DNA from: a virus
IMG/VR virus record: IMGVR_UViG_3300009678_000004
Coordinates: 630 to 64,629 of that record
Direction: 5' to 3' (one strand)
Length of the DNA: 64,000 nucleotides
Notes under the pieces: model-generated
The model's database searches: none
Told to the model about the DNA's origin: nothing
Seen by the model: only the letters and a program-made list of their open reading frames with translations
Made by a program: the position numbers and the translations under genes
Part shown: in pieces, positions 18,410-43,670 of the stretch
Layout: the number at the start of each line of letters is the position of its first letter
Numbering within the stretch: position 1 is the stretch's first letter

Positions 18410-18738
18410 CAGAACGGCACCACCACGCCGCGGTTGTTGGGGCCGGCCACGTCCATCCATGGCGAGTTCACGTTCACGCGATACTGGTACTTCCACTCCC
18501 AGCGGTTGCAGCCGCCGTCGCCGCTCGGCAGGACGCACCAGAAGCTGAACCGCCCGAGCTGGTCGGCGGGACCGTTGCTCACCCAGTAGGTTCCGTCGCT
18601 GTGCCAGAGCGCGCCCGTTTCAGTCTCGTTCATCGTCACGACGATCGCGTCCTCGCCCTCGACCACGTCGAGCGTGCCGATCTCGGCCGGTGGGTTGGCG
18701 CTATTCCAGATCGTCCCGTCCTTGGTGATCTTGCTCAT
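18409..18738 (-). CDS. Trp-rich CxRWxW-motif protein (paralogue 3)
   Basis: CVLPSGDGGCNRWEW. Confidence 0.6.
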   Translation of the reverse strand: MSKITKDGTIWNSANPPAEIGTLDVVEGEDAIVVTMNETETGALWHSDGTYWVSNGPADQLGRFSFWCVLPSGDGGCNRWEWKYQYRVNVNSPWMDVAGPNNRGVVVPF

Positions 18739-20783
18739 GCCTTGGGCCATCCGAAAACGTCGGCGGCCTTCGCCTGTTCTCTGTGCATCTGCCAGATGTT
18801 GCCGAGGTTCGGCGACAGGAAGCTCTGCCCGCCCTGGACCCTCTGCGCGAGCTGCTTCAGGTAGATCAGCTTCGCGAACGCCTCGACTTTCCTGTCTTGC
18901 AGCACCAGCGCGGCGCCGGCCATCGCCGGACCGAGCCAGCCCTCATCCGAGATCCAGCCGCGGCTCTGATGGGGGGCGGCGCGCATCTCGAGGCCGATCG
19001 GGATCGACGGCTTTCCGGTCGCTGCATCGATCGGCGCCGCAGGATCGGGCCCGATCACCGGGTAGCTATCGAGGATGCCTCTCTCGGCGTCGACGACACC
19101 CGGCTGCATCGCGCAGTCGGCGCAGTAGCGGACCAGCGTGAGATAGAGATTGCGCCAGAAGCCGTCGGGCTCCATGCGCGAGCTCTGCACAAAGTTGAGC
19201 GTCGCGATCGCGAGCTGGAAGCTGCCCTCGAGGATGCCCGCGTAACGCGGGTCGTAGCCGAGCGCCTCGTCGATCTCGTACGAGCGCGGGTAGGGCTTCA
19301 GGTACTCATAGCCGCGCGTCAAGAGCGCCCGGTACGGCGTCTCGCTGAGCTTGTGCGTCCAGGTCCAGCGCGCGGCATCGCGGGCATCGCCGGCGTAGCG
19401 ACGCGCGTCTGCATCCCAGGCGGTGTTCGCCATCGCAAACGCGGCGAGCTGCTCATCGTTCGGGCGCCAGCCGCAGGTCGAGCGTGAGCTGTGCGCCTGC
19501 AGCGCCACGGTGACGTGTCCCTCCGCCGTGTGACGCACACGCCGCAGCGCCAGCGGGTCGCCGTAGAGGGTCCACGCGGCGCAATCGCTGACGAGCCAAC
19601 CGCCGTGCTCGAACTCCTGGTGCCCGTTCGCGGTGCCGTACTGTCCGCCGAATTGCGAGGTCCTGGCCTGAAGCTCGTTCATGCCGAGGTCGTGCGGGTC
19701 GAGCTGGTCGCGGCCGAAACACTCGGTGAACTGCCACATCCCGCCGATCTCGACCCGGCCCTCGTGCAGGATGAACGGGCGCACCGCGTCGGTATCCACC
19801 TTGGTCAGCTTGTAGCGCACGCCGCGCGTCGGCTGATCGCCCTGCGCGTTGATCGTCAGGTACTGCGGACGACCGCTGATCCACTTCGGCGGGCCGAGCT
19901 TCGGCGAGAAGGCTCCGGTCTGGACTTGGCTGTTCTGATGCAGCGCGCGCAGGATCTCCTGCGCCTTGGTCTTGTCGCCGAGCTTGGTGGCGTTGAGCCA
20001 CGCCTCGAAGTGCATCGAGCACTGCTGGGTGATGTAGTGACTGTGGGTCTGGCGTGGGTACACGCGCCGCAGCGGCAGATCGCCGACGATCTGCGCGATG
20101 TTGGGGTTGCTGCGACCGTCGCCGAAGTAGCGCGCGTCGGCGCTGCGATCTTGCGGGTCGTAGTCCCACTGCCACTGCCCACCGGCGAAGTCGGGCGCCT
20201 CGATCGGCGCGAAGTTGAGTGCACTCGGTACCGCTTGCGGCGATCTCTGGAACCACCATTTCATCTTCTCGGTGTGCGGCCACGGCTTCGGCTCGAACCA
20301 ACCGAAGCACGCGCCCATCTGATCCGGGATCTCGATGCCGTCGATGAAGGCGTCGTTCTTGGCTGGCCAGAATCCGTTCCACTGGCCGCCGTTCAGCTTC
20401 GCTTGACCCTTGCCTTCGATACGTCCAACCGGCGGCGTCGACTCGGAAAGGATCGCGCCGGCGATCCACTCGCTGCCGTCCTTGTAGGTGATCTCCCACC
20501 ACAGCACGCGCAGGGTCTTCGGGCTTGGCCACGGGCCCTGCATTTCGCCGTACCAGCAGTGACCGCTCGCGGTGTTCGGGTCGCGGCCGGCGAGGTACTC
20601 GTCCTTGAGGATCAGCGTCGCGGTCTTCGAGTCGAACGTGAACGCCATCGCGGCATAGTGCTCGTTCGGGATGCGCCGGTAGCTCTCTTGCGTTGCCTCG
20701 AAGCGCAGCGTCAGGTGATGTTTCGGCGCGACGAGGAGCGAAGCTGGTGCGCTCGGTACGGTGGGGGCGGCGGTGTCAGCCAT
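18735..20783 (-). CDS. Large hypothetical protein (~680 aa), aromatic-rich, possibly a glycan-acting enzyme
   Basis: Long ORF, GGGAG RBS; W/Y-rich with helical C-terminal half; no family recognised. Confidence 0.6.
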   Translation of the reverse strand: MADTAAPTVPSAPASLLVAPKHHLTLRFEATQESYRRIPNEHYAAMAFTFDSKTATLILKDEYLAGRDPNTASGHCWYGEMQGPWPSPKTLRVLWWEITYKDGSEWIAGAILSESTPPVGRIEGKGQAKLNGGQWNGFWPAKNDAFIDGIEIPDQMGACFGWFEPKPWPHTEKMKWWFQRSPQAVPSALNFAPIEAPDFAGGQWQWDYDPQDRSADARYFGDGRSNPNIAQIVGDLPLRRVYPRQTHSHYITQQCSMHFEAWLNATKLGDKTKAQEILRALHQNSQVQTGAFSPKLGPPKWISGRPQYLTINAQGDQPTRGVRYKLTKVDTDAVRPFILHEGRVEIGGMWQFTECFGRDQLDPHDLGMNELQARTSQFGGQYGTANGHQEFEHGGWLVSDCAAWTLYGDPLALRRVRHTAEGHVTVALQAHSSRSTCGWRPNDEQLAAFAMANTAWDADARRYAGDARDAARWTWTHKLSETPYRALLTRGYEYLKPYPRSYEIDEALGYDPRYAGILEGSFQLAIATLNFVQSSRMEPDGFWRNLYLTLVRYCADCAMQPGVVDAERGILDSYPVIGPDPAAPIDAATGKPSIPIGLEMRAAPHQSRGWISDEGWLGPAMAGAALVLQDRKVEAFAKLIYLKQLAQRVQGGQSFLSPNLGNIWQMHREQAKAADVFGWPKA

Positions 20784-20865
20784 GCGGTGATGCGCTCCCG
20801 GAGCTGAGGTGGTTGCGGCCGCCCCCCGCAGGAGGAAAGGGCGAGGAGCGGCCGCGTGAGCAGTG

Positions 20866-21228
20866 TTAGAAGCTGCCGGCGGCCGGCACGTCGGCCTTCT
20901 CGATCGGCTCCGCGGCGGTGAACGCCGGGGCGCCTGCGGCATCGGGCTCGGTCGCGGTCAAACCGACGGTGACGGCCTCATGCGCGCTGCCGTCGACGTC
21001 GGTGCAGGTGACGGTGAAGCCGGTGGCCTCGACCGCGTCGCCAGTCACGAGATACGCCTTCATGCCGTCGTTGCTCGGCACCACGGTGGCCGTGCCACCG
21101 GCGCCGTCGTTGGCCCACACGACCGTTCCGTACTTGGTCGGGCGGCCCATACGATCCTTCGGCTGGTCCAAGGAGACGAGGACGGCCTGGCCGGTGTCGC
21201 ACGTGAACGAGTAGTTAAATTCCGCCAT
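20866..21228 (-). CDS. Ig-like beta-rich protein
   Basis: PKDRMGRPT..VVW..TATVVPSNDG pattern; AAGGA RBS. Confidence 0.55.
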   Translation of the reverse strand: MAEFNYSFTCDTGQAVLVSLDQPKDRMGRPTKYGTVVWANDGAGGTATVVPSNDGMKAYLVTGDAVEATGFTVTCTDVDGSAHEAVTVGLTATEPDAAGAPAFTAAEPIEKADVPAAGSF

Positions 21229-21229
21229 G

Positions 21230-21478
21230 TCAGTGTTCCTTGTTGATGAGGGGAATGAGCTGCGGGAGCAGCTCTTTCGGAACTTTCATCACCTCGGAAA
21301 CGATGACCGTGCGGTCGCGTCCCGGGTGAGTCAGCTCGTCCACCGAGCGCGTGGCGAGCAGCATTGAGTTGACGATCTGGAGAATGGAGGCCGTGACGGT
21401 CACGGCGCACTGGCCGGCGGTGAGTCGAATTTCGATGGAGTCGGGCTCGGGGTCACAGTGCATCGAGTCATCGATCAT
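21230..21478 (-). CDS. Hypothetical protein
   Basis: GGAG RBS; coupled to the downstream gene. Confidence 0.45.
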   Translation of the reverse strand: MIDDSMHCDPEPDSIEIRLTAGQCAVTVTASILQIVNSMLLATRSVDELTHPGRDRTVIVSEVMKVPKELLPQLIPLINKEH

Positions 21479-21800
21479 GGATCGTGATCTCCGCACTGGC
21501 GTCCGAGCGCGAAGCGTTTCCATCCCGCGGCTACACCAGTGCAAGGCGAGAACCACGAAACGGAAGCGCTTCGACGAAAGTGCAGGCGGTTGGCCGACCA
21601 CCATGCACGCCCGGTCAGGGACGATGATCGCCGAGCAGCGCGACGCCGTCAAGCGTGTAGCTTTGTCACGCGAAGTACATTGCCGAGCAAAGCGCGCGCG
21701 TAATATCCGAGCGGTGTGAACTGGTCGCGAGCACGGTCAAATCGGTGGGCTATGATTGGTTTGAGCGATCAAACCTTTTCCCGATCAAAGGAGCTTCCCC

Positions 21801-21944
21801 ATGACCGACCGACCGAATCCTGGCACCGGCGAGCCGAACCCCGAGCGCAGCAAGCCCGAGCCGCGCGTGAATCCGTACGCGCCGCCGAACAAGCCGAACC
21901 CGACGCCCAAGCCGCACGTCCCGAACGAGCCCAAGCCCAAGTAA
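21801..21944 (+). CDS. 47-aa proline-rich peptide (not in the ORF track)
   Basis: AAAGGAG RBS; MTDRPNPGTGEPNPERSKPEPRVNPYAPPNKPNPTPKPHVPNEPKPK*; TATGAT upstream. Confidence 0.6.
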   Translation: MTDRPNPGTGEPNPERSKPEPRVNPYAPPNKPNPTPKPHVPNEPKPK

Positions 21945-22009
21945 CTTCCCCGTTTCGAGCTTGGCAGCGCGCCTGTCGCACGTGATCGCGCGACGGGCGC
22001 GTTTCGCGT

Positions 22010-22402
22010 TCACATCTCGCTGGATTCGGCGATCTGCCAGCGCGCCATGCTCTGGAACGCGTCGCTGCGGACCACGTATTCGATCATAGGGACGATCGCT
22101 TGCGCGCGCGTGCCGGGGTGCACGTCGGCGATCGCATGCAGCAGCTTCGCTGCGCCGACCGAGGAGAGCGGATGGGCGCACGAGATGATCGGCTCGTAGT
22201 GGTTGCCGATGCGGAAGGCGATGTCGCAGATCGCGGTAAGGCGGTAGTGCTCATGCCCGCCCCGGCCTTCGTCCTCGTCGGGATTCAGGAACCAGAGGTT
22301 GACCGCGAAGCCGTTGGGAAATTGAAAACCGATGGCGGTACCCGTCGGATCTTCTCGCCGACGGAGCGCGCGGAAGCCTTCACGGTTGGTGGTGCCGTCC
22401 AT
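22010..22402 (-). CDS. Hypothetical protein
   Basis: ORF with globular-like composition. Confidence 0.45.
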   Translation of the reverse strand: MDGTTNREGFRALRRREDPTGTAIGFQFPNGFAVNLWFLNPDEDEGRGGHEHYRLTAICDIAFRIGNHYEPIISCAHPLSSVGAAKLLHAIADVHPGTRAQAIVPMIEYVVRSDAFQSMARWQIAESSEM

Positions 22403-22435
22403 CCGGGAGGCAATGGTAGCACGACGGGCCAGGGA

Positions 22436-22816
22436 TCAGCGCTTGAACCTCAGTCCGTACTCGTCTAGTCGTGCGCTCAATTCCTTCACGATTTTGACGC
22501 CGACTCCGCTCATCTGATAAAGTTCGGTCTCTGTGAACCGAGCCAGATCCCCGATTGTTTTGATCTGTTCTCTTCGATCCGATCCGCTGCGGCGATAGTA
22601 GTTTATTCGGCTGACCACGGCCCGCGCTCGGCCGCTCAGGCCGTCGAGTGCATCCCTAATCGGGACGTCGCCACGCCTCGCGCCTTCCACATCGAGCAAC
22701 GTGCCACACTCTGGGCAGTACGTGATCTGCGCTGTCTCTTCGCCGAGCACGAGAAAGTAGGCACCGAGCGCGCTCTTGAAGACGATGGCCGGATCTCCGC
22801 ACTTGGTGCAGCTCAT
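22436..22816 (-). CDS. Zinc ribbon fused to an RNA polymerase alpha-CTD-like domain
   Basis: CxxC...CxxC then LSGRARAVV...IKTIGDLARFTETELYQMSGVGVKIVKEL..L..YGL. Confidence 0.75.
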   Translation of the reverse strand: MSCTKCGDPAIVFKSALGAYFLVLGEETAQITYCPECGTLLDVEGARRGDVPIRDALDGLSGRARAVVSRINYYRRSGSDRREQIKTIGDLARFTETELYQMSGVGVKIVKELSARLDEYGLRFKR

Positions 22817-23769
22817 GTCGCCGCTCCGAAAACCTGGACCGACTCGTAATGGCTGCCCCAGGCCATCGGGCTCGCCTCGCTGAGCAGCAGAACGCCTTGC
22901 GCGTCCGCCACCTTGCGCTGCCAGATGTTGATGGTCTTGGCCACGTCGTAGCAGCGCGTCGTCGGCTCGGCGCCAGCGATCGCCGCTCCCAGCAGCCCCG
23001 GCCCGTTCTCGTCGGGCGTCCAGGTCGCGTCGTTGCTCACCGCGCCAAACTGGTCGTAGGTCGACGGGATGCCTTGGTCGGTGATTAGCCCGTTCTGCTT
23101 GACCATGTCGCAGAGGTACCCGCAACGCTGCTTGAACTTGGCGCCCCACTCGGTGAACCCGCCCTCCGAGCGCGCGCCGACGGTGAGCCCGTAGATCGCC
23201 ACCGCGACGCCGACCAGCGACTCGACGCCGTCGATCGGCATGAACACCTTGGCCGGGTGCTGGCTGCCGATGTTCTGCTGCTCGGCGGCAAAGACGCAGA
23301 GCGCGCGCGCCGCGGTTCGGTAGCGCTCGTCTTTGATGCACCAGAACCCCCACCAGAGGCGCGTCATCATGTTGCCGAACTCGAGCGACGACGTCGGCCG
23401 GTGCGCGCTGGTGACGATCGCCTCGCAGCGCATGCCGAGTTTGCCCCGCGCGCGCTCATCCGAGAGCAGCGCCCAGCCGGCGACGAGGTCGCAGTCGGGT
23501 AGGCCGGCAGCGTCGAGGCGCGCGCTCAGACTGTTGAGCATGGTCCCGATCTCGGCGCCCATGCCGCGCTCGGCGTAGGACCAAAGCGTGGTCTCGTAGG
23601 CCGAGCGGAACGGCGAATGGCCGACGGCCGATGGCGCGAGCGTGTAGATCCCGGGCGGCGCCTTGAGGCCCGCGCGCTTATCCTTCGCGAGCAAGGACAA
23701 GATCGACCAGTCGATCTTCGGCTGCAGGCCGGCGGATTCGAGGACGGCGTGGAGCTGGGAATGGATCAT
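22813..23769 (-). CDS. Hypothetical protein
   Basis: 318-aa ORF, GAGGAG RBS. Confidence 0.6.
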   Translation of the reverse strand: MIHSQLHAVLESAGLQPKIDWSILSLLAKDKRAGLKAPPGIYTLAPSAVGHSPFRSAYETTLWSYAERGMGAEIGTMLNSLSARLDAAGLPDCDLVAGWALLSDERARGKLGMRCEAIVTSAHRPTSSLEFGNMMTRLWWGFWCIKDERYRTAARALCVFAAEQQNIGSQHPAKVFMPIDGVESLVGVAVAIYGLTVGARSEGGFTEWGAKFKQRCGYLCDMVKQNGLITDQGIPSTYDQFGAVSNDATWTPDENGPGLLGAAIAGAEPTTRCYDVAKTINIWQRKVADAQGVLLLSEASPMAWGSHYESVQVFGAAT

Positions 23770-24247
23770 GGGGTCTCCTCAGGCAGCAGGTGTGCTTTCT
23801 GCACATGGGTCTCGTAGTAGATCCGTGCGCATCTGCGGCACGCGCGGCCCCTGCCGTCACGCCGATGGAGCGTGTTGGTATCATCGAAAGGATGGCCGTA
23901 CTTGCATGCGACCTTGCGCTTATTGACGGCGCTCGTTCCGATCCCGCGCGCGATGTTCTCGGAGTTAGTGACCACTTCAAGGTGGGTCGGGTTCACACAC
24001 AGTCGATTGCGGCAGAGGGAATCTTCGTCTTGTTGTGCAGCTCGTAGGCGACGCGGTGCGGCTTGCACCGTCGGCCACCGATCACGATCTGGCCGTAGCC
24101 GTCGGCGTCGGATGCCCCAGCCCCTGTCCACACCCAGCATCCGTTCGGGTCCTTGCGGATCTTCGACCACACTCGCTCAGCAAGGTGCTCGGCTAGATAC
24201 CGTCGTCGTGACTCGGACAGTTTCCGGCGTTGTTCGAGGGTCATCAT
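23766..24247 (-). pseudogene. Frameshifted HNH homing endonuclease
   Basis: GCWVWTG..GYG..HRVAYEL in one frame, LCRNRLCVNPTHLE..CKYGH..CRRC in another; the DH before LCRN is missing near 24018. Confidence 0.8.
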
Positions 24248-24435
24248 GGAGTGACATCCTGAGTCCGTCCTGGCCCGTACCAGATCCCGAGCGGCGTCAC
24301 CGAGTAAGTGCCGCCGGGCTCGAGGCGGATATCGAAACCGGCGACGTCGCGATCGAGCAGCATCAGCGCCACTTCCTCGGAGACCTCGTCGCGCGGGACG
24401 CCGGTCTTGGGCCGCGGGAGGGATGGGTTTCTCAT
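24244..24435 (-). CDS. Hypothetical protein
   Basis: Overlapping start/stop coupling. Confidence 0.45.
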   Translation of the reverse strand: MRNPSLPRPKTGVPRDEVSEEVALMLLDRDVAGFDIRLEPGGTYSVTPLGIWYGPGRTQDVTP

Positions 24436-24659
24436 GGATTGCCCTTGGCGATCGCACGCTCGGCGATCCATGTGCTCGCCATGTGACTCCGGCGCGCGCC
24501 TTCGAGCCAGATCGCCAAGCTGACCAGTGGCTCGCTCTTGCCGCCCTCGCGCTGCTTGATCCAGTGGCGCATCAGGTGGTTGTCGAGTTCGGCCGCAAGC
24601 GCACGTCGCTCGAGATCGATGAACGTCTTGGCGACGTCGGTGATCGGTGTGTCGGTCAC
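24432..24659 (-). CDS. Hypothetical protein
   Basis: GGAGG RBS; coupled. Confidence 0.5.
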   Translation of the reverse strand: MTDTPITDVAKTFIDLERRALAAELDNHLMRHWIKQREGGKSEPLVSLAIWLEGARRSHMASTWIAERAIAKGNP

Positions 24660-25192
24660 TCAACCCTCCTGGCCCGCCGCTCATACTCGGGGAAGCTGGC
24701 GCGCGCGCCCCACACCAGGATCGCGCAGTCGGCGAGCGTCTTGCGCCACACGCGATAGAACCCGGCCAAGCGCTGGCCGTCGGTCTCGTTCAGCGCCGAC
24801 ACCGCATCCCGCACTTGCTCGTCCGTCAGTTCGCCTTCGGGCAAGCGGCCGACCGACGTGATGAGCGTCTCGTAGGCCGAGAGTAGCACCTCGGCGGTCG
24901 CCGCGAACGAGCGTATTTCCTCGTCGGTGGCGTCGGCGGGGAAGGGGCTTTTCGGCCCGGTCGGCATCATCTCGAACACCGGCAGCCACTGTCGCGCGTA
25001 GGCAACGGCGGGATCGTCGTGAGACAGTCGGTCCCAGCGACGGACGGACGCGAGCGCGATGGGGTCTGCGCTCGCCTCGGGGGTCTGTGCAGACGCCGCA
25101 ACGCGCGCGGGGGAGACGGTCGGCGTTGGTGTCTCGGTGGCGGGGATGCAGCCGAGGATGAAGAGCAGGGCAAGGGTTGGTCTCACGGTCAC
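24656..25192 (-). CDS. Probable lipoprotein
   Basis: VRPTLALLFILGC lipobox followed by a P/T linker. Confidence 0.55.
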   Translation of the reverse strand: MTVRPTLALLFILGCIPATETPTPTVSPARVAASAQTPEASADPIALASVRRWDRLSHDDPAVAYARQWLPVFEMMPTGPKSPFPADATDEEIRSFAATAEVLLSAYETLITSVGRLPEGELTDEQVRDAVSALNETDGQRLAGFYRVWRKTLADCAILVWGARASFPEYERRARRVE

Positions 25193-25419
25193 GGTTTTCT
25201 CCTCGGAATCGGCTGAGTGGTGCTCATGAACATTTTCCGACGGTGTCGCAAGATCAAGCCAGGATTGCCGCGAGCCCTTTCGCCGAGATCCTCCATGGCT
25301 GCGTCCAGTTGAGCGCCTTCCATAGGTGGATAGCGACGGCACACGTACTCATAGCCGCCGATCGTCTCGCCATGCCACTCGCACCCCTGGCATGATCTGC
25401 CGCGCCTGTAGTCGGTCAT
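25189..25419 (-). CDS. Small Cys protein (CxxC..CRRYPP)
   Basis: Motif also seen in 25990-26196. Confidence 0.5.
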   Translation of the reverse strand: MTDYRRGRSCQGCEWHGETIGGYEYVCRRYPPMEGAQLDAAMEDLGERARGNPGLILRHRRKMFMSTTQPIPRRKP

Positions 25420-25763
25420 GGGTTGGCCTCGGGCTGCTGCTGCTCGGCTCGCTTCGCTTTCTCGGCAATCCAGATCGCCTCGACCTCTTGCTCGATCTCG
25501 AGCCCCCATGCCGGATCGAGTAGTTCGACGGCGGCCATGAATCCCTCCCAGGACATCAGCTCCATCGCCTCATCCTGATCGAGTCCGGTCCTGCCATAAG
25601 GACCGTCGCCGCCGCCGATGCAACCCCAGCCTCTCACGCGCATGCTGCCCGCGTTGACGGCGATCAGCTCCGCTAATCGCTCGATCCGGCGCATCGAAGC
25701 GGACGAGTTCCAGCGCTGGATCGTCACCCCGGTATCCAGCCATGCGCGAAGTTGTGGGGTCAT
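25416..25763 (-). CDS. Hypothetical protein
   Basis: Coupled ORF. Confidence 0.5.
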   Translation of the reverse strand: MTPQLRAWLDTGVTIQRWNSSASMRRIERLAELIAVNAGSMRVRGWGCIGGGDGPYGRTGLDQDEAMELMSWEGFMAAVELLDPAWGLEIEQEVEAIWIAEKAKRAEQQQPEANP

Positions 25764-25993
25764 GCTTCCTCGCTCGTGACGTCGGGAAGGGCGCGGATAG
25801 CCGCGATGTCACGGTCATGGCACTTGTCGGCTCCGCACTTCTGGCCTTCGCATGCGTCGATGCACCGCTCGCGTTCGGCCCGGCGTTCCGCGCGGATGAG
25901 GATAAGAATCTTCGCGCGCATATCCGCAACGGTGTTCCCGCGAAATGACAGGATCTCCATCAGCGTCTCGCGGCGCGGCTTCTCTTCGCTCAT
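25760..25993 (-). CDS. Hypothetical protein (AERERC motif)
   Basis: Common phage small-ORF motif AERERC..AAIRAL. Confidence 0.5.
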   Translation of the reverse strand: MSEEKPRRETLMEILSFRGNTVADMRAKILILIRAERRAERERCIDACEGQKCGADKCHDRDIAAIRALPDVTSEEA

Positions 25994-26196
25994 GGTTGTT
26001 TGCCCTCGGGCTGCTGCTGCTCGGCCCAGTCGCCGCACCAGTCGTGCGGCTCGGTAAACGGCCAGCGCCCGAAGTGGACGCCGAGCGTTGATCGCCGCGC
26101 CGATTCAACGGGCGCGCGGCGACGACACTGTGAGGCGCGATAGTCGCCACGATCCCAATAGCGGCAAGTGCTACATTCCCGTTTAGGTTCAGGCAT
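25990..26196 (-). CDS. Small Cys/metal-binding protein
   Basis: CSTCRYW..CRRRAP..WP.T...DWCGDW. Confidence 0.6.
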   Translation of the reverse strand: MPEPKRECSTCRYWDRGDYRASQCRRRAPVESARRSTLGVHFGRWPFTEPHDWCGDWAEQQQPEGKQP

Positions 26197-26371
26197 TGGG
26201 CTTGGCCTCGGGCTTCTGCTCTGTCCAGAACGATTCTTTGTATTCGTTGCAGTACCACTCAACGAGGATGTCGCCGTGACCATCGGGCGCGGTCGCCGTC
26301 CAGAGATCTCGACCGCCGGCAAACGTTCGGTTCTCACACCACGGGCAGCCCTCAGGTTGGTTCACTGGCAT
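26189..26371 (-). CDS. Small zinc-ribbon protein
   Basis: CPWC..WYC. Confidence 0.45.
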   Translation of the reverse strand: MPVNQPEGCPWCENRTFAGGRDLWTATAPDGHGDILVEWYCNEYKESFWTEQKPEAKPNA

Positions 26372-26389
26372 TGGTTCTGATAACCTCAG

Positions 26390-26605
26390 TTATGTTGATC
26401 TGCGGCGCTTCCACCAGCGCACCAAACAGCCAAGCGTCCCGACGATCAGGCGCTTCGAGCACACGCCATCGAAGACGAAGTGGTCTTCGGTGACGCGCGA
26501 GCCGCGGCAGCGCGTGCAAGTCTTCGGCACCATGACGTACAGGTTCACCACCGAGTTGCTCGTGGTGGCAATCGCCGGGAGTTTCGGCACGCCGATATCG
26601 CTCAC
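26390..26605 (-). CDS. Small hypothetical Cys protein
   Basis: CTRC motif. Confidence 0.4.
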   Translation of the reverse strand: MSDIGVPKLPAIATTSNSVVNLYVMVPKTCTRCRGSRVTEDHFVFDGVCSKRLIVGTLGCLVRWWKRRRST

Positions 26606-26735
26606 GTTGCCTCGCCTTCTTCGGCCAGCAGCGCGCGGAGCCTCTTACGGCACCTGATCAGCGCCTCGGAATCGCGATAGCTGATGCCGATGTCCCGCGT
26701 TATGAGGTCCAGCTTGGCCAGGATCGGATCGGGCG

Positions 26736-27446
26736 TCACGGCTTCTCCACCACCCAAAAGTAAGTGTCTCCGTTCGGCTTCACGGCTGCGAGGATCGCGA
26801 ACTTCGAGTCGTCCTCCCAGAACCGCGTACCGATCGTGATCTTCTCATCGCGGAAAACCTCGACGCGGCCGTGCCCAGCCTCGACAAACGAGAGCATTTC
26901 ACGCGTCGTCTCGTCGTATTTCACCCACTCAGCATCGGTACTCACGTGCCGGTCGCGGCGTTCCCCCGCCCGCACCTCCTCCAGCGTTCTCGCGACCTTG
27001 GTCTGTGCGATGTAGTGGCAGTGGCACCCGGTATCGTTGAGCAGGGTCTCGTCCGTCTTCCACCACGCGTCCTGCGTCGCCGCACTCCAGCGCAACATGA
27101 TCGTGCATCCGGTCGGCGGCGTGATGGTGGTCGGTACGCCGAGAGCGAGCGCCGCGGCGATGTCCGCGCGGTTGATCGAAAACGCGTTATCCGAGATCTT
27201 GCGAATGACCTTTTGCTTGAGCCCGCCCGTGTTGCTGCCGGGGATGATGGGCTCCACCGGCCCTAGCTCGTACTGCTCGGTCGTGAACCAGGCACCGTCA
27301 AGCTCGACCTTCGGCTTGTCGATCAAGAGGACTTGCGTCCACTCCGCGGTCGGCGCGCTCGCCTGCGTCGTGTTGCTGATGATTGCAATCCAGACGGCAA
27401 CGGTCATCAGCGCCATCGGTGCGAGCAACATCAGAAACTTTCTCAT
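26736..27446 (-). CDS. Exported protein
   Basis: MRKFLMLLAPMALMTVAVWIAII signal/anchor; AAAGGA RBS. Confidence 0.6.
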   Translation of the reverse strand: MRKFLMLLAPMALMTVAVWIAIISNTTQASAPTAEWTQVLLIDKPKVELDGAWFTTEQYELGPVEPIIPGSNTGGLKQKVIRKISDNAFSINRADIAAALALGVPTTITPPTGCTIMLRWSAATQDAWWKTDETLLNDTGCHCHYIAQTKVARTLEEVRAGERRDRHVSTDAEWVKYDETTREMLSFVEAGHGRVEVFRDEKITIGTRFWEDDSKFAILAAVKPNGDTYFWVVEKP

Positions 27447-27469
27447 GCGTCTTTCCTTTCGCTTTGCGG

Positions 27470-27904
27470 TTACATGTCGCAGCAGGGTCCACACGTGTAA
27501 CCCCAGACACCCGGAATCACTTCGACTTGATGTGGGTTGCAGCAGAAAGTGCAGATAAAAAAGCCGCTATTGCCTTTGCACTTAATCGCCCAGTATCCAG
27601 GCTCGGTTTCGGTGGCAGGCACCCAGACTAATTGCAGCACGCACCTCCCCACGGCGATGCAGCCCTCGCAGCACCAGCACTTGACAAACCACGGCGAGGC
27701 GAACTTGTTGCACGAACACGGCTCGGCATCGTTGCACAGGTTCCCCATGAAAGAAGAGCAGCCGTTCGGGTAGCAGAAGAACCCGTCCGGGCCACCGTCG
27801 CCAATGACGTACCCGTTGCATTGGGTAGGGCCGGCTTGCCCGTAGGCGCGGTCAGACAGCGCAGCGAACCCGAGCACGATCAGAATCACAGCGAATCGTT
27901 TCAC
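27470..27904 (-). CDS. Secreted cysteine-rich protein (18 Cys)
   Basis: Signal VKRFAVILIVLGFAALSDRAYG; AGGGAG RBS. Confidence 0.7.
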   Translation of the reverse strand: MKRFAVILIVLGFAALSDRAYGQAGPTQCNGYVIGDGGPDGFFCYPNGCSSFMGNLCNDAEPCSCNKFASPWFVKCWCCEGCIAVGRCVLQLVWVPATETEPGYWAIKCKGNSGFFICTFCCNPHQVEVIPGVWGYTCGPCCDM

Positions 27905-27949
27905 GAGAGTCTCCCTTTGCCTTCGCTTCCTTGTCGTCACAGAACACGC

Positions 27950-28174
27950 TCATGGTTGGTTCCTCTTGTAGCTCGGCAGGCGCCCGGCCTTGATGTCCTC
28001 CGGTGTGAGCATGATGATCTTGATCTCCGGGTCGCAATCGCAACGCCCCGCGCCTGTGCTGTAGAGCGTGCACTCGTCGTCGTGCATCACGGCGCAATCG
28101 TAGAGCGCGCCCGGTGGTAGGCCGCGGGCCGCCTCCAGCACCTTGGGCACGTAGTTGTGATCGAGAGCGTCCAT
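27950..28174 (-). CDS. Small metal-binding hypothetical protein
   Basis: HDDEC..CDCDPEI; AAGGAG RBS. Confidence 0.55.
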   Translation of the reverse strand: MDALDHNYVPKVLEAARGLPPGALYDCAVMHDDECTLYSTGAGRCDCDPEIKIIMLTPEDIKAGRLPSYKRNQP

Positions 28175-28247
28175 CTTGGTCTCCTTGCAAAATAAGGTGC
28201 TCGTCTCTCCGAGCCGTCACGCCTGAACGCCGGCGTTCGCATTAGAT

Positions 28248-28818
28248 TGCGGCCGTGCCCCGACCGGCCTTGGCTGGACTGGCCGTTGTTCGACCAACCA
28301 CTGCGGCCCTATCAGGACCCGACAAGCCCGACGTTTTCGCGTCGCGACTCATCGAGACTATGCGGCCTTGCCTCGACATAGCAGACCGGACCTCACCATG
28401 CGTGACCTGGACGCGCCAATGCGCTCCAGACGATTGCGGCCACAACATTACACGCCCTGCCAACGCAGTCCTTACGCAACGATCCAGACTAGCCATTGCG
28501 GCCATGCCGCGAGTTGACAAGCCCGACCCGGGCTTGCCATCCCATGACCGAACAGACCATTGCGGCCTTGACACTCCTAGCCAGACCGTTACACGTCCTG
28601 GCGTATCGCACCCTTGCGGCCATGACACGACCTAACGGACCGTGCCCGGACAATCCGAGCCACGGACTGACATGACCGTACTGACCAATGCGGCCATGAC
28701 TCGCCATGACACAACGCAACAGAGCCAGACTAAGCGCTCCAATGCGTACCGAGCCGTTGCGGCCATGGCTCGACGTGCCATTCCGTAACGGAACTTTACA
28801 AGGCATTCCATTCCGGCC
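28248..28818 (-). ncRNA. Pentamer-periodic repeat array, putative guide-RNA array (9 units)
   Basis: TGCGGCC on + at 28248, 28302, 28361, 28435, 28497, 28561, 28615, 28689, 28758 and a variant at 28812; G every fifth base on the minus strand. Confidence 0.8.
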
Positions 28819-28840: not shown

Positions 28841-29368
28841 TCAGCCCGTCTTTTGGACGCGCTGAAACGCGAACGTCTTCGCCAACCGGAACAAACTCGG
28901 CAGCCGTTTCTCGAGCGCGTGATAGCGGCCAAGCCATTCCGTAAGATCCTGGCGCGCCCGGATCATCACCTTCTCGGAAAGCGAATCATCGGTCGCGACC
29001 AGGTCGATTTCTTGATAACCCACGAGTGGCTCCTCCACATGCACAAGGACCCGCTCCTCGACCTCCTCTCCCTCCTCATTCTCGACGATCACCCGGAGCG
29101 AGTTGCAGAGATTGCGCGCCAGATGCAGGCGCCACTGATGCCCGGCGATCTTATCGTCCCAAGGGAACACGTTGTGGATTGGCGACGCTTTCGGCTTGGC
29201 CGCCTCCACCACGTTCTCGGGCATCGCCACGCCATCCCGATCGCGGATCATGATGATCAGCTCGGCCGCCGCGTTGTGGTCCTTGATCCTGCTGGCAATG
29301 ACGGGGCTCGAGAAACCGTACCTCGGCCCGGACTTGGTGGCCGTAGCTTTAGCTCGCCTTTTGGGCAC
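28841..29368 (-). CDS. Accessory protein of the RAMP/array locus
   Basis: PENVVEAAKPKASPIHNVFPWDD..AG..WR...AR motif; overlaps the RAMP-like gene and abuts the array. Confidence 0.7.
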   Translation of the reverse strand: MPKRRAKATATKSGPRYGFSSPVIASRIKDHNAAAELIIMIRDRDGVAMPENVVEAAKPKASPIHNVFPWDDKIAGHQWRLHLARNLCNSLRVIVENEEGEEVEERVLVHVEEPLVGYQEIDLVATDDSLSEKVMIRARQDLTEWLGRYHALEKRLPSLFRLAKTFAFQRVQKTG

Positions 29369-30152
29369 GGCGGCCTCCCTTCTTGCGTCCCCTGGATGCT
29401 TGGAACTGTTGCTCGGTCATGACCTCGGCGCAGCCCCAGTCACCGCCCTTCTCGGCACGCTGTTCACAGAAGCCGATCAGCTCGCAGGCGTAGCTGAGCA
29501 GCGTCATGACCTGCTCGGCCGAGATGAAGTTGCTGACGAAGCGGACCACGATCGGCACCGACCAGCCGGTGTATTGCGGGCGATAGCGCAGATCGGCGCG
29601 CCCGGTGCCTGGCCCACGGCCGCCGACGCGCACGGCGTCCTCGCGCATCGTGGGCTGCGCGGCGTCATGCTCCAGCGGCGAGAACTCGTTGCCCGGGTTG
29701 ATCCTGACGACGCTACGCACGAGCGTCTTCGAGAGACCCTGCACGAACCCGCAGGCACTGACCATGGCTTTTTTAATCGCCATGGTGGGAATACAGTCTT
29801 TGCCGCGCACGACATAGCGCGCTTGGTTGAACTCCTGTTTTGGGTTGCGCTTCGGCCGCGCGCTCTTGGCCTTCTTGCCGTGCTTGTCGCGCAGCTCCTG
29901 CTTCGCCTTCTCGGTGAATCGATGCACCACGAGCACGTCGACGCCGACGATGCGCAGCTGCACCCGACTAAATATGAGCTTCGGGATCACCACGTGTTCG
30001 GCGGGCACGATCTTCTTGCCGATCTCCGCCTTGGCAGTCTCGGGTTCGAGATCCGCTTCCGGCTCCTCGATCTGCGCTGGGTCGAACTCCAGCTCCGCCA
30101 CCTCGGCGCCGTTGTCGCCCGTAGTGGGTGGTGTTAAGCGTCTCCGTGTCAT
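29349..30152 (-). CDS. Cas7/RAMP-like RNA-binding protein
   Basis: LRIVGVDVLVVH strand, IPTMAIKKAM helix, MRED.VR.G..DLRYRP..W thumb, C-terminal G-rich loop IGFCEQRAEKGGDWG; AAAGGAG RBS. Confidence 0.75.
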   Translation of the reverse strand: MTRRRLTPPTTGDNGAEVAELEFDPAQIEEPEADLEPETAKAEIGKKIVPAEHVVIPKLIFSRVQLRIVGVDVLVVHRFTEKAKQELRDKHGKKAKSARPKRNPKQEFNQARYVVRGKDCIPTMAIKKAMVSACGFVQGLSKTLVRSVVRINPGNEFSPLEHDAAQPTMREDAVRVGGRGPGTGRADLRYRPQYTGWSVPIVVRFVSNFISAEQVMTLLSYACELIGFCEQRAEKGGDWGCAEVMTEQQFQASRGRKKGGRRAQKAS

Positions 30153-43275: not shown

Positions 43276-43418
43276 TCGCCAAAGCGTCGCGCGATCCCCA
43301 TTCGTCCTAGTCAAAAACCCGATGGAACAAGGGGATTATCGGGAACTGTGCCTTTGTGTACAGGGAAAAACTTTGTGTGTGAGCGACCGTGTGTTAAGGT
43401 AGGCGGAGCATGGGACCT

Positions 43419-43670
43419 ATGACTAAACGGAAGCCGACCCCCGCAGAGATCAAAGAGGCCATCACCAGGCCGCCCGGCACGATTCCGATCGCCGAGGCCG
43501 CCAAGCGGATCGGCTTGGACCGGGCCACCGTCTGGAAGATGTTCATGGCCGGCGAGATCAGGGGCTGGCGCAAGGTGAGCAACCGCCGCGTCTGGATCTA
43601 CGAGACGGCGTGCGACGAGTACATCGCCAACGCGATTGCCGCCGACCCGACGCGGAAGCCTCCCCGCTAG
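43419..43670 (+). CDS. Excisionase-like HTH_17/MerR-fold protein
   Basis: IAEAAKRIGLDRATVWKMFMAGEIRG. Confidence 0.75.
   Translation: MTKRKPTPAEIKEAITRPPGTIPIAEAAKRIGLDRATVWKMFMAGEIRGWRKVSNRRVWIYETACDEYIANAIAADPTRKPPR

Follow-up and report, generated by a model that had tools for sequence, protein, structure and literature searches.

The locus and its genome

Virus record IMGVR_UViG_3300009678_000004 is 64,629 bases long, has terminal repeats and is complete. The window, which is the whole stretch of DNA analyzed here (64,000 nucleotides, positions 630 to 64,629 of the record), covers nearly all of it. The G+C content of the phage is 65%, and almost every gene lies on the minus strand. In the window, PHROGs identified genes for head, tail, terminase, integrase, RecT, SSB, RusA and methyltransferase functions, and the phage is therefore a siphophage of temperate habit. 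It is an uncultured high-G+C phage from groundwater with a genome of 64.6 kb. The best phage relatives of its portal protein are just 36% identical, and matches to its major capsid protein at E <= 1e-40 occur in 5 of 401 genomes of one class, with a top identity of 45%. No tRNA gene was found in a search of the phage. Among sequencing runs that contain DNA of the phage, no RNA run was listed; three other DNA runs have contigs with short pieces of it that are identical or nearly so.

The array region is flanked by a 175-aa gene and a 74-aa gene (27950-28174, minus strand), and the ~670 bp between them contain no credible gene. The locus reads, in one direction on the minus strand, as vipr, a vap-like gene and the array. 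PHROGs names its neighbors as RusA and methyltransferase genes, and a recombination/replication module adjoins the array. The features below are named after the VIPR (Viral Interference Programmable Repeat) system, whose guide RNAs are called vrRNAs.

29349..30152, minus strand: vipr, predicted to encode a 267-aa Cas7-like RAMP protein with a disordered N-terminal stretch of ~55 residues and a core of ~190 residues
28841..29368, minus strand: vap-like accessory gene, 175 aa, with a match to phrog_15946
28810..28818, minus strand: leading boundary motif GGCCGGAAT, 22 nt past the vap stop codon
28756..28809, minus strand: unit 1, 54 nt, 9 body pentamers and boundary motif
28687..28755, minus strand: unit 2, 69 nt, 12 body pentamers, all with G first, and boundary motif
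28613..28686, minus strand: unit 3, 74 nt, 13 body pentamers and boundary motif
28559..28612, minus strand: unit 4, 54 nt, 9 body pentamers and boundary motif
28495..28558, minus strand: unit 5, 64 nt, 11 body pentamers and boundary motif
28433..28494, minus strand: unit 6, 62 nt, the sole unit that is not 5n+4 in length, with a register slip inside
28359..28432, minus strand: unit 7, 74 nt, 13 body pentamers and boundary motif
28300..28358, minus strand: unit 8, 59 nt, 10 body pentamers, whose NN pairs with 1-base skips decode in frame to a helix-turn-helix-like peptide
28246..28299, minus strand: unit 9, 54 nt, 9 body pentamers and final boundary motif
28189..28214, minus strand: terminator-like hairpin with a T run, ~30 nt past the array, a match to the consensus only

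Two genes downstream of the array (27470-27940, minus strand), a 156-aa cysteine-rich protein with a hydrophobic N-terminus is encoded, and it has no PHROGs or Pfam match. The block that separates the array from the terminase region (18735-28174) comprises some fourteen minus-strand genes without a match in either database. Several uncalled gaps of 400-660 bp occur there (e.g. 23769-24432 and 25763-26390), and a pentamer array is present in none of them.

Anatomy of the array

Array anatomy was computed directly from the letters. The boundary motif is 9 nt long and consists of GGCCGCAAT and one-letter variants of it. Its ten copies on the minus strand have their first bases at 28818, 28764, 28695, 28621, 28567, 28503, 28441, 28367, 28308 and 28254, and they divide the array into nine head-to-tail units of 54, 69, 74, 54, 64, 62, 74, 59 and 54 nt, eight of which are 5n+4 in length. 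With the register anchored on the boundary motif, G stands first in 86 of 96 body pentamers. The control was a set of 5000 first-order Markov shuffles with the best register allowed for each, and these gave a mean of 51.7 (sd 3.3) and a maximum of 64. Over the 96 pentamers, the counts at position 2 are 43 G, 33 T, 13 C and 7 A, and those at position 3 are 48 C, 29 T, 15 A and 4 G. Base use at positions 4 and 5 is near even. An earlier note, made from the sequence without database searches, had proposed a pentamer of G-(G/T/C)-(C/T/A)-N-N with the variability concentrated in the NN pair, and these counts bear it out. The minus-strand NN strings that it gave for units 2, 4, 7 and 9 were reproduced letter for letter, the first pair of each being derived from the GCAAN of the preceding boundary motif. 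Its observation that the units differ holds for all nine, which are mutually different. The array does lie where the note put it, at 28255-28811, with a true span on the minus strand that is slightly wider (28818-28246).

Tandem Repeats Finder reported nothing at the array because the units are not copies of one another, and no repeat family beyond the 9-nt motif was found in the array region. A blastn search of the array against 50,697 phage records returned no match. When IMG/VR was scanned with a 14-mer that includes the boundary motif, 119 single, unrelated matches were obtained, none with an array beside it. No second array emerged when the whole window was scanned for pentamers on both strands. 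The stretch after the last unit folds no better than its shuffles (z -0.26), and there is no structured 3' tail of ~40 nt; between units stands just the 9-nt boundary motif. A scan of 2.4 kb gave three terminator-like sites, where shuffles predict 1.6.

Two further observations concern single units. A 12-nt stretch recurs in units 5 and 8 (28516-28527 and 28321-28332, minus strand) at an identical pentamer register, and two consecutive NN pairs are therefore common to both guides. At position 28334, one low-depth contig from another sample has C in place of T, a single observation that is possibly an error; on the minus strand this is the fifth (variable) pentamer position of a unit 8 pentamer.

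Three open reading frames of 126-147 aa cross the array. They were rejected as high-G+C artefacts, since the period of the array is 5, not 3, and codon periodicity is lacking. Type III toxin-antitoxin RNAs of the ToxI kind are tandem repeats, nearly identical to one another, that precede a gene for an endoribonuclease toxin. This identity was also rejected: the units all differ, the array region has no Rfam match at E <= 1, and the 74-aa gene downstream has no family match in PHROGs or Pfam.

The vipr gene and its product

A large protein collection holds 47 homologues of the 267-aa protein, and their alignment displays a conserved arginine-rich motif and a conserved glycine-rich C-terminal motif. 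When a profile of this alignment was compared with the PDB, the top match was chain 36pp_D, 'SUSP1 Vipr protein' (E 6.3e-12), and the next chain stood at 0.12. The single sequence had the same top match at E 0.43, which is not significant alone. An AF2 model built from the alignment (pLDDT 85.8) was searched against the PDB with Foldseek; all of the matches listed were Csm3, Cas7, Cmr or Cas7-11 chains, with a best E of 1.8e-5 and 58 at E <= 1e-3. Matches of the model in BFVD include a phage protein named Cas-associated RAMP. By tblastn against phages, actinophage relatives only were recovered, and there is no BLAST-level similarity to SUSP1. On the strength of its aligned sequence, we identify the 267-aa gene as a Vipr homologue.

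In the alignment with SUSP1, Arg191, Glu230 and Arg232 face R138, D177 and R179, which the accessible text of the structural preprint describes as the contacts of the fixed bases G1, G2 and Y3 (bioRxiv 10.64898/2026.04.26.720927). Gln231 faces W178, and the same text has Trp178 stacking on G2 (bioRxiv 10.64898/2026.04.26.720927).

The accessory gene

BLASTP aligned the 175-aa protein with the ORF that follows vipr in two other loci, namely L177 (29% over 139 aa, E 8e-16) and L131 (38% over 96 aa, E 2e-15), and the gene is therefore the accessory gene of the clade. A scan of IMG/VR with the protein found no relatives, a word-based protein search found only the protein itself, and Pfam gave nothing. 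Its single-sequence fold (pLDDT 40.9) was too poor for use.

Linkage of vipr and array in relatives

By tblastn, vipr and the accessory gene were found to occur together in Mycobacterium phages (27 records) and in Gordonia phages. IMG/VR was scanned with the 12 closest vipr relatives, which yielded at least 544 encoding stretches, and 80 loci were kept. Of these 80 loci, 74 carry on the vipr strand a G-phased pentamer array 60 nt or more in length, and the same test applied to control loci, fetched for an unrelated 14-mer, was positive in 0 of 119. The array mostly lies a few hundred bases downstream of vipr, past the accessory gene. Several of the six loci without an array stop just after the vipr gene. 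The genome collection contributed 28 further loci, in Alphaproteobacteria, Clostridia, Actinobacteria and other groups.

Guides of the clade were extracted by a dynamic-programming parse of 110 loci, which gave 378 guides from 101 loci. Their pentamer consensus is G (98%), G (83%), C/T (92%), N, N. The clade boundary motif is GGCA followed by GGC, and 205 of 304 spacings between its copies equal 4 mod 5, a one-base shift of register per unit that the phage array shares. The NN pairs vary across the clade, as the earlier note had expected of related phages; a close relative with a homologous array, in which such variation could be followed, was not found.

Two cultured phages show how the module is placed and annotated. 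In Mycobacterium phage Pippy, a G-phased pentamer tract lies directly upstream of gene 48, the vipr homologue, and under annotated gene 47. This CDS 47, a hypothetical protein (KY965064 34458-34710; locus L129 2458-2710), sits on a tract of GGC-NN pentamers and probably represents vrRNA sequence annotated as a gene in error. In Gordonia phage ODay (MW534375) the tract runs between genes 19 and 20. The vipr-array-vap module of ODay (locus L130 2637-3902), together with two HTH genes, stands between the tail assembly chaperone and tape measure genes, an odd placement that suggests a mobile cassette.

This linkage bears on whether the array acts as DNA or as RNA. A set of replication-origin iterons, or else a packaging site, with a phage protein bound to the GGCCGCAAT motifs would account for a 600-bp non-coding stretch with ten spaced 9-bp motifs beside a recombination/replication module. 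However, iterons are not known to show so strict a 5-nt phase, with its G specific to one strand, and the spacings of 54-74 bp are out of helical phase. The terminase genes are 14 kb from the array, and the array accompanies vipr on its strand in 74 of the 80 relatives, whatever the neighboring genes. We regard a DNA-level element as very improbable.

The gapped code in the clade

A set of 364 unique clade guides was searched against 1.52 Mb of collected loci with arrays masked, at skips of 0-3 bases between NN pairs, with shuffles for each. Outliers appeared at a skip of 1 only, where 3 of the 364 guides had E < 0.01. A guide of locus L235 matches at 20 of 20 positions in the vipr gene of L190, at the most conserved motif of the family; a guide of L174 matches at 23 of 24 in the accessory gene of L177; and a guide of L236 matches at 20 of 22 in L160, at a site homologous to the L177 match. 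All three matches are in frame, with the skipped base at the wobble position, and lie in the vipr or accessory genes of rivals. The lowest E at a skip of 1 was 4.5e-6, compared with 0.0088, 0.052 and 0.0088 at skips of 0, 2 and 3, and it was 0.0016 in 4368 shuffled guide searches. The published 1-nt-skip rule therefore holds in a distant clade, and the systems of this clade target one another. According to the available text of a further preprint, which deals with competition against satellites, guides of Enterobacteriaceae phages are predicted to aim at the VIPR systems of rivals (bioRxiv 10.64898/2026.10.15.759431).

The earlier note had suggested a non-contiguous target of the form NN-x-NN-x, which could skip codon wobble positions, and had called for a search at gaps of 0-3 against shuffled controls. 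The suggestion coincides with the published mechanism of VIPR vrRNAs, and the 1-nt-gap outliers among the clade guides, all in frame, agree with it. As for the search, clade guides gave outliers at a gap of 1 only, and the phage's own nine guides gave no target.

The protein TRAP binds triplets spaced in a 5-nt register. The register of the array resembles that of TRAP on the trp leader, and the RNA might accordingly wrap a ring or filament protein for regulation, with no guiding to DNA. Against such a scaffold, the protein encoded next to the array is a RAMP homologous to SUSP1 Vipr and not a TRAP-like ring, and the in-frame matches of clade NN pairs to rival genes at a 1-nt skip would be unexpected of a pure scaffold. 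This reading is exceedingly improbable in our judgement. The TRAP-like scaffold, the replication origin and the packaging site were all dropped on the RAMP homology and the array-vipr linkage.

Searches for targets of the nine guides

None of the nine guides has a match of >= 80% of NN positions in its own genome at skips of 0-2, and none rises above shuffles of NN order. The best self-matches at a skip of 1 are, for units 1 to 9, 13/18, 15/24, 16/26, 13/18, 14/22, 14/20, 17/26, 15/20 and 14/18. A skip of 3 trivially finds the array itself. When all nine guides were compared with ~0.7 Mb of collected loci, mismatches counted, nothing exceeded the shuffles.

Public collections were scanned with units 2, 3, 5, 7 and 8, and exact patterns were used in every scan except the search of 401 genomes, so that imperfect targets could escape. 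Pairs 1-10 of unit 2 had no exact match in IMG/VR. Four 8-pair scans of IMG/VR gave 13 matches for unit 7 (pairs 2-9; best extension 22/26), 14 for unit 2 (pairs 4-11; best 22/24, in contigs of 33% G+C), 2 for unit 3 and 5 for unit 5 (best 20/22). These yields of 2-14 matches are consistent with a rough chance estimate. The best extensions (22/26, 22/24 and 20/22) fall in contigs of 33-55% G+C, against 65% for the phage, and no second guide converges on them within 10 kb. Eleven pairs of unit 7 had no exact match in the genome collection, and its 13 pairs had none with <= 3 mismatches in 401 genomes of one class.

The 10 pairs of unit 8 have three exact 20/20 matches in metagenomes, all in frame within ORFs. 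The guide decodes to S-[DE]-A-A-[KN]-R-[FL]-G-L-[SR], a helix-turn-helix-like peptide, and one matched ORF is a Fis-type HTH protein. The three matches are in unrelated genes on contigs of 51-54% G+C, and the motif is common; they are probably not the real targets of guide 8, and we read them as a sign of the kind of gene for which the guide is built. The best self-site of guide 8 (15/20) is in frame in the HTH stretch of an excisionase-like gene at 43410-43670 on the plus strand. This gene encodes 86 aa, lies beside the integrase, is one of the few plus-strand genes and matches phrog_66, with Pfam HTH_17 below the cut-off. A mismatched copy of its own excisionase-like gene fits a guide 8 aimed at the same gene in rivals. 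Across the searches of the phage's own genome, the collected loci and the public collections, no natural target was found for the nine guides.

Features that set the locus apart

Of all the loci compared, this one has the loosest fixed part in its pentamers. G occupies position 2 in 45-53% of pentamers, the lowest value of 66 loci; under a common parser it stands at 0.53, whereas the other 65 have a median of 0.83 and go no lower than 0.56. The boundary motif is GGCCGCAAT rather than the GGCA/GGC of relatives. At the G-loop position of the Vipr protein where Trp is found in 86 of 101 loci and Phe in 5, the phage studied here has Gln. Loci that carry the Trp also reach down to 0.56 for G at position 2, and the link between Gln231 and a relaxed position 2 is for that reason a lead and not a finding. 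Locus L214, from a Polyangiaceae MAG, encodes a Vipr with the G-loop GLCERRP, in which Arg holds the Trp position, and has A at position 3 in 73% of 22 pentamers (GGA-NN). It is a possible second case of protein and scaffold changing together.

The looseness could reflect an array that is decaying, or one that serves as a decoy, with guides that no longer silence since the fixed part has drifted from GGY to G-(G/T)-(C/T/A). The low position-2 G, the register slip in unit 6 and the outcome of the target searches would all suit such a history, and standalone vrRNAs are described, in the available text of one preprint, as redirecting the silencing machinery to decoy sites (bioRxiv 10.64898/2026.10.15.759431). 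Against it, 86 of 96 pentamers retain their first-position G and 8 of 9 units an exact 5n+4 length, which argues for selection, and vipr and vap are intact open frames. Moreover, the looser repeat types NNNGG, YNNNG and NNNNG are already on record in the accessible text of the VIPR preprint (bioRxiv 10.64898/2026.04.26.720920). We see only a slight chance that the array has decayed or acts as a decoy.

A more speculative reading, to which we give a modest chance at best, is that the phage Vipr is a natural specificity variant with positions 2 and 3 unlocked, which would use a denser or different gapped code and which, with a tail-less array cut at the 9-nt motif, would form a distinct sub-type. 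It builds on Gln231, found where SUSP1 Vipr has the Trp that stacks on the second guanine, and on guides relaxed from GGY to G-(G/T)-(C/T/A). If these positions are not locked, the bases there could be free to vary or even join in target reading. The sub-type would then have processing and decoding rules of its own, beyond the published rule of two bases in five.

Identity of the system and proposed mechanism

In the accessible text of bioRxiv 10.64898/2026.04.26.720920, VIPR is built from three parts: Vipr, a small protein of the RAMP kind; the accessory gene vap; and vrRNAs with 9-16 pentamers of the form GGY/NN. Double-stranded DNA is reported there to be recognized by the NN pairs with one base skipped per pair, mostly at wobble positions, and the systems to silence rival phages, prophages and satellites (bioRxiv 10.64898/2026.04.26.720920). 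Seven types are distinguished, with looser repeats (NNNGG, YNNNG and NNNNG) and with staggered and ribozyme-spaced arrays (bioRxiv 10.64898/2026.04.26.720920).

The locus described here agrees with this definition in its main components. Vipr proteins are small RAMPs with an RRM core, a glycine-rich loop and a thumb; a homologue is indicated here by the PDB profile match, the RAMP matches in Foldseek and the conserved glycine-rich C-terminal motif. The units hold 9-13 body pentamers with a variable NN pair and a fixed part looser than GGY. The array lies beside vipr on the same strand, with a vap gene and without cas genes or CRISPR repeats, and no self-target reaches 80% of NN. The invariant structured 3' tail of type II is absent, a feature that defines type II and not the whole family. 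We therefore hold with high confidence that the region is the guide-RNA array, with nine vrRNAs, of a VIPR system in a temperate siphophage. The reading of the array as a gapped code is supported, but the kind of system to which it belongs has already been published (bioRxiv 10.64898/2026.04.26.720920).

Transcription, processing and filament formation are predicted here by analogy with published type II systems, and hits by the phage's own guides are likewise a prediction. The transcript of the array would be cleaved at the GGCCGCAAT boundaries or close to them, and one Vipr protomer would settle on each pentamer to build a helical filament. The three fixed bases that open each pentamer would be flipped out and held by the protein, with the two variable bases offered for pairing. 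Such a filament would bind double-stranded DNA that matches NN-x-NN-x. The skipped base would usually be a third codon position, so that synonymous mutations would not help a target to escape. Binding would silence transcription of genes in a rival phage, prophage or satellite.

The VIPR family thereby gains a complete temperate, high-G+C groundwater phage, and the general picture of VIPR is unchanged. The gapped code proved recognizable from raw sequence alone. The clade searches test the 1-nt skip rule by computation in a group of Viprs distant from SUSP1, and the guides there match rival vipr and accessory genes at their most conserved motifs. Since the same module is present in cultured Mycobacterium and Gordonia phages, bench testing would be easy. 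A relaxed scaffold that occurs with a substitution at a guide-contact residue could inform scaffold engineering.

Comparison with known systems

VIPR type II, known from Escherichia phage SUSP1 and a Pseudomonas fulva prophage (bioRxiv 10.64898/2026.04.26.720920 and 10.64898/2026.04.26.720927), is like the present system phage-borne, with a small RAMP protein and a second small gene, which in type II is vap1. Published type II guides have 9-16 pentamers and those described here 9-14, both with a fixed 3-base part and a variable pair. Type II and the clade studied here both use a 1-nt skip in frame, and neither SUSP1-type systems nor the present phage have self-targets. The fixed part is GGY in type II, whereas here it is G-(G/T)-(C/T/A). 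Type II guides end in a pseudoknotted 3' tail of ~40 nt, whereas the units here abut with only a 9-nt motif. The G-loop residue is Trp178 in SUSP1 Vipr and Gln231 here.

Staggered vrRNA arrays offer a closer parallel in layout. The legend of fig. S18 describes guides without spacers and with a one-base register shift per boundary, as here, a match that rests on the wording of that legend (bioRxiv 10.64898/2026.04.26.720920).

Class 1 CRISPR-Cas was rejected as the identity of the locus, which has no direct repeats beyond the 9-nt motif. No cas gene was named in the window by PHROGs or Pfam, vipr is the sole RAMP, and the locus is without CRISPR repeats, cas1/cas2 or other cas genes. The RAMP fold is nevertheless common to Vipr and to the class 1 backbones, in which Cas7 or Csm3 lies along the crRNA. 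By the accessible text of both preprints (bioRxiv 10.64898/2026.04.26.720927 and 10.64898/2026.04.26.720920), each system places one protomer on every fixed step of the guide, and thumb-induced base flipping interrupts pairing periodically. The step is 6 nt with 5 paired in class 1 CRISPR, whereas in VIPR it is 5 nt with 2 paired, and the double-stranded DNA target is read with a gap.
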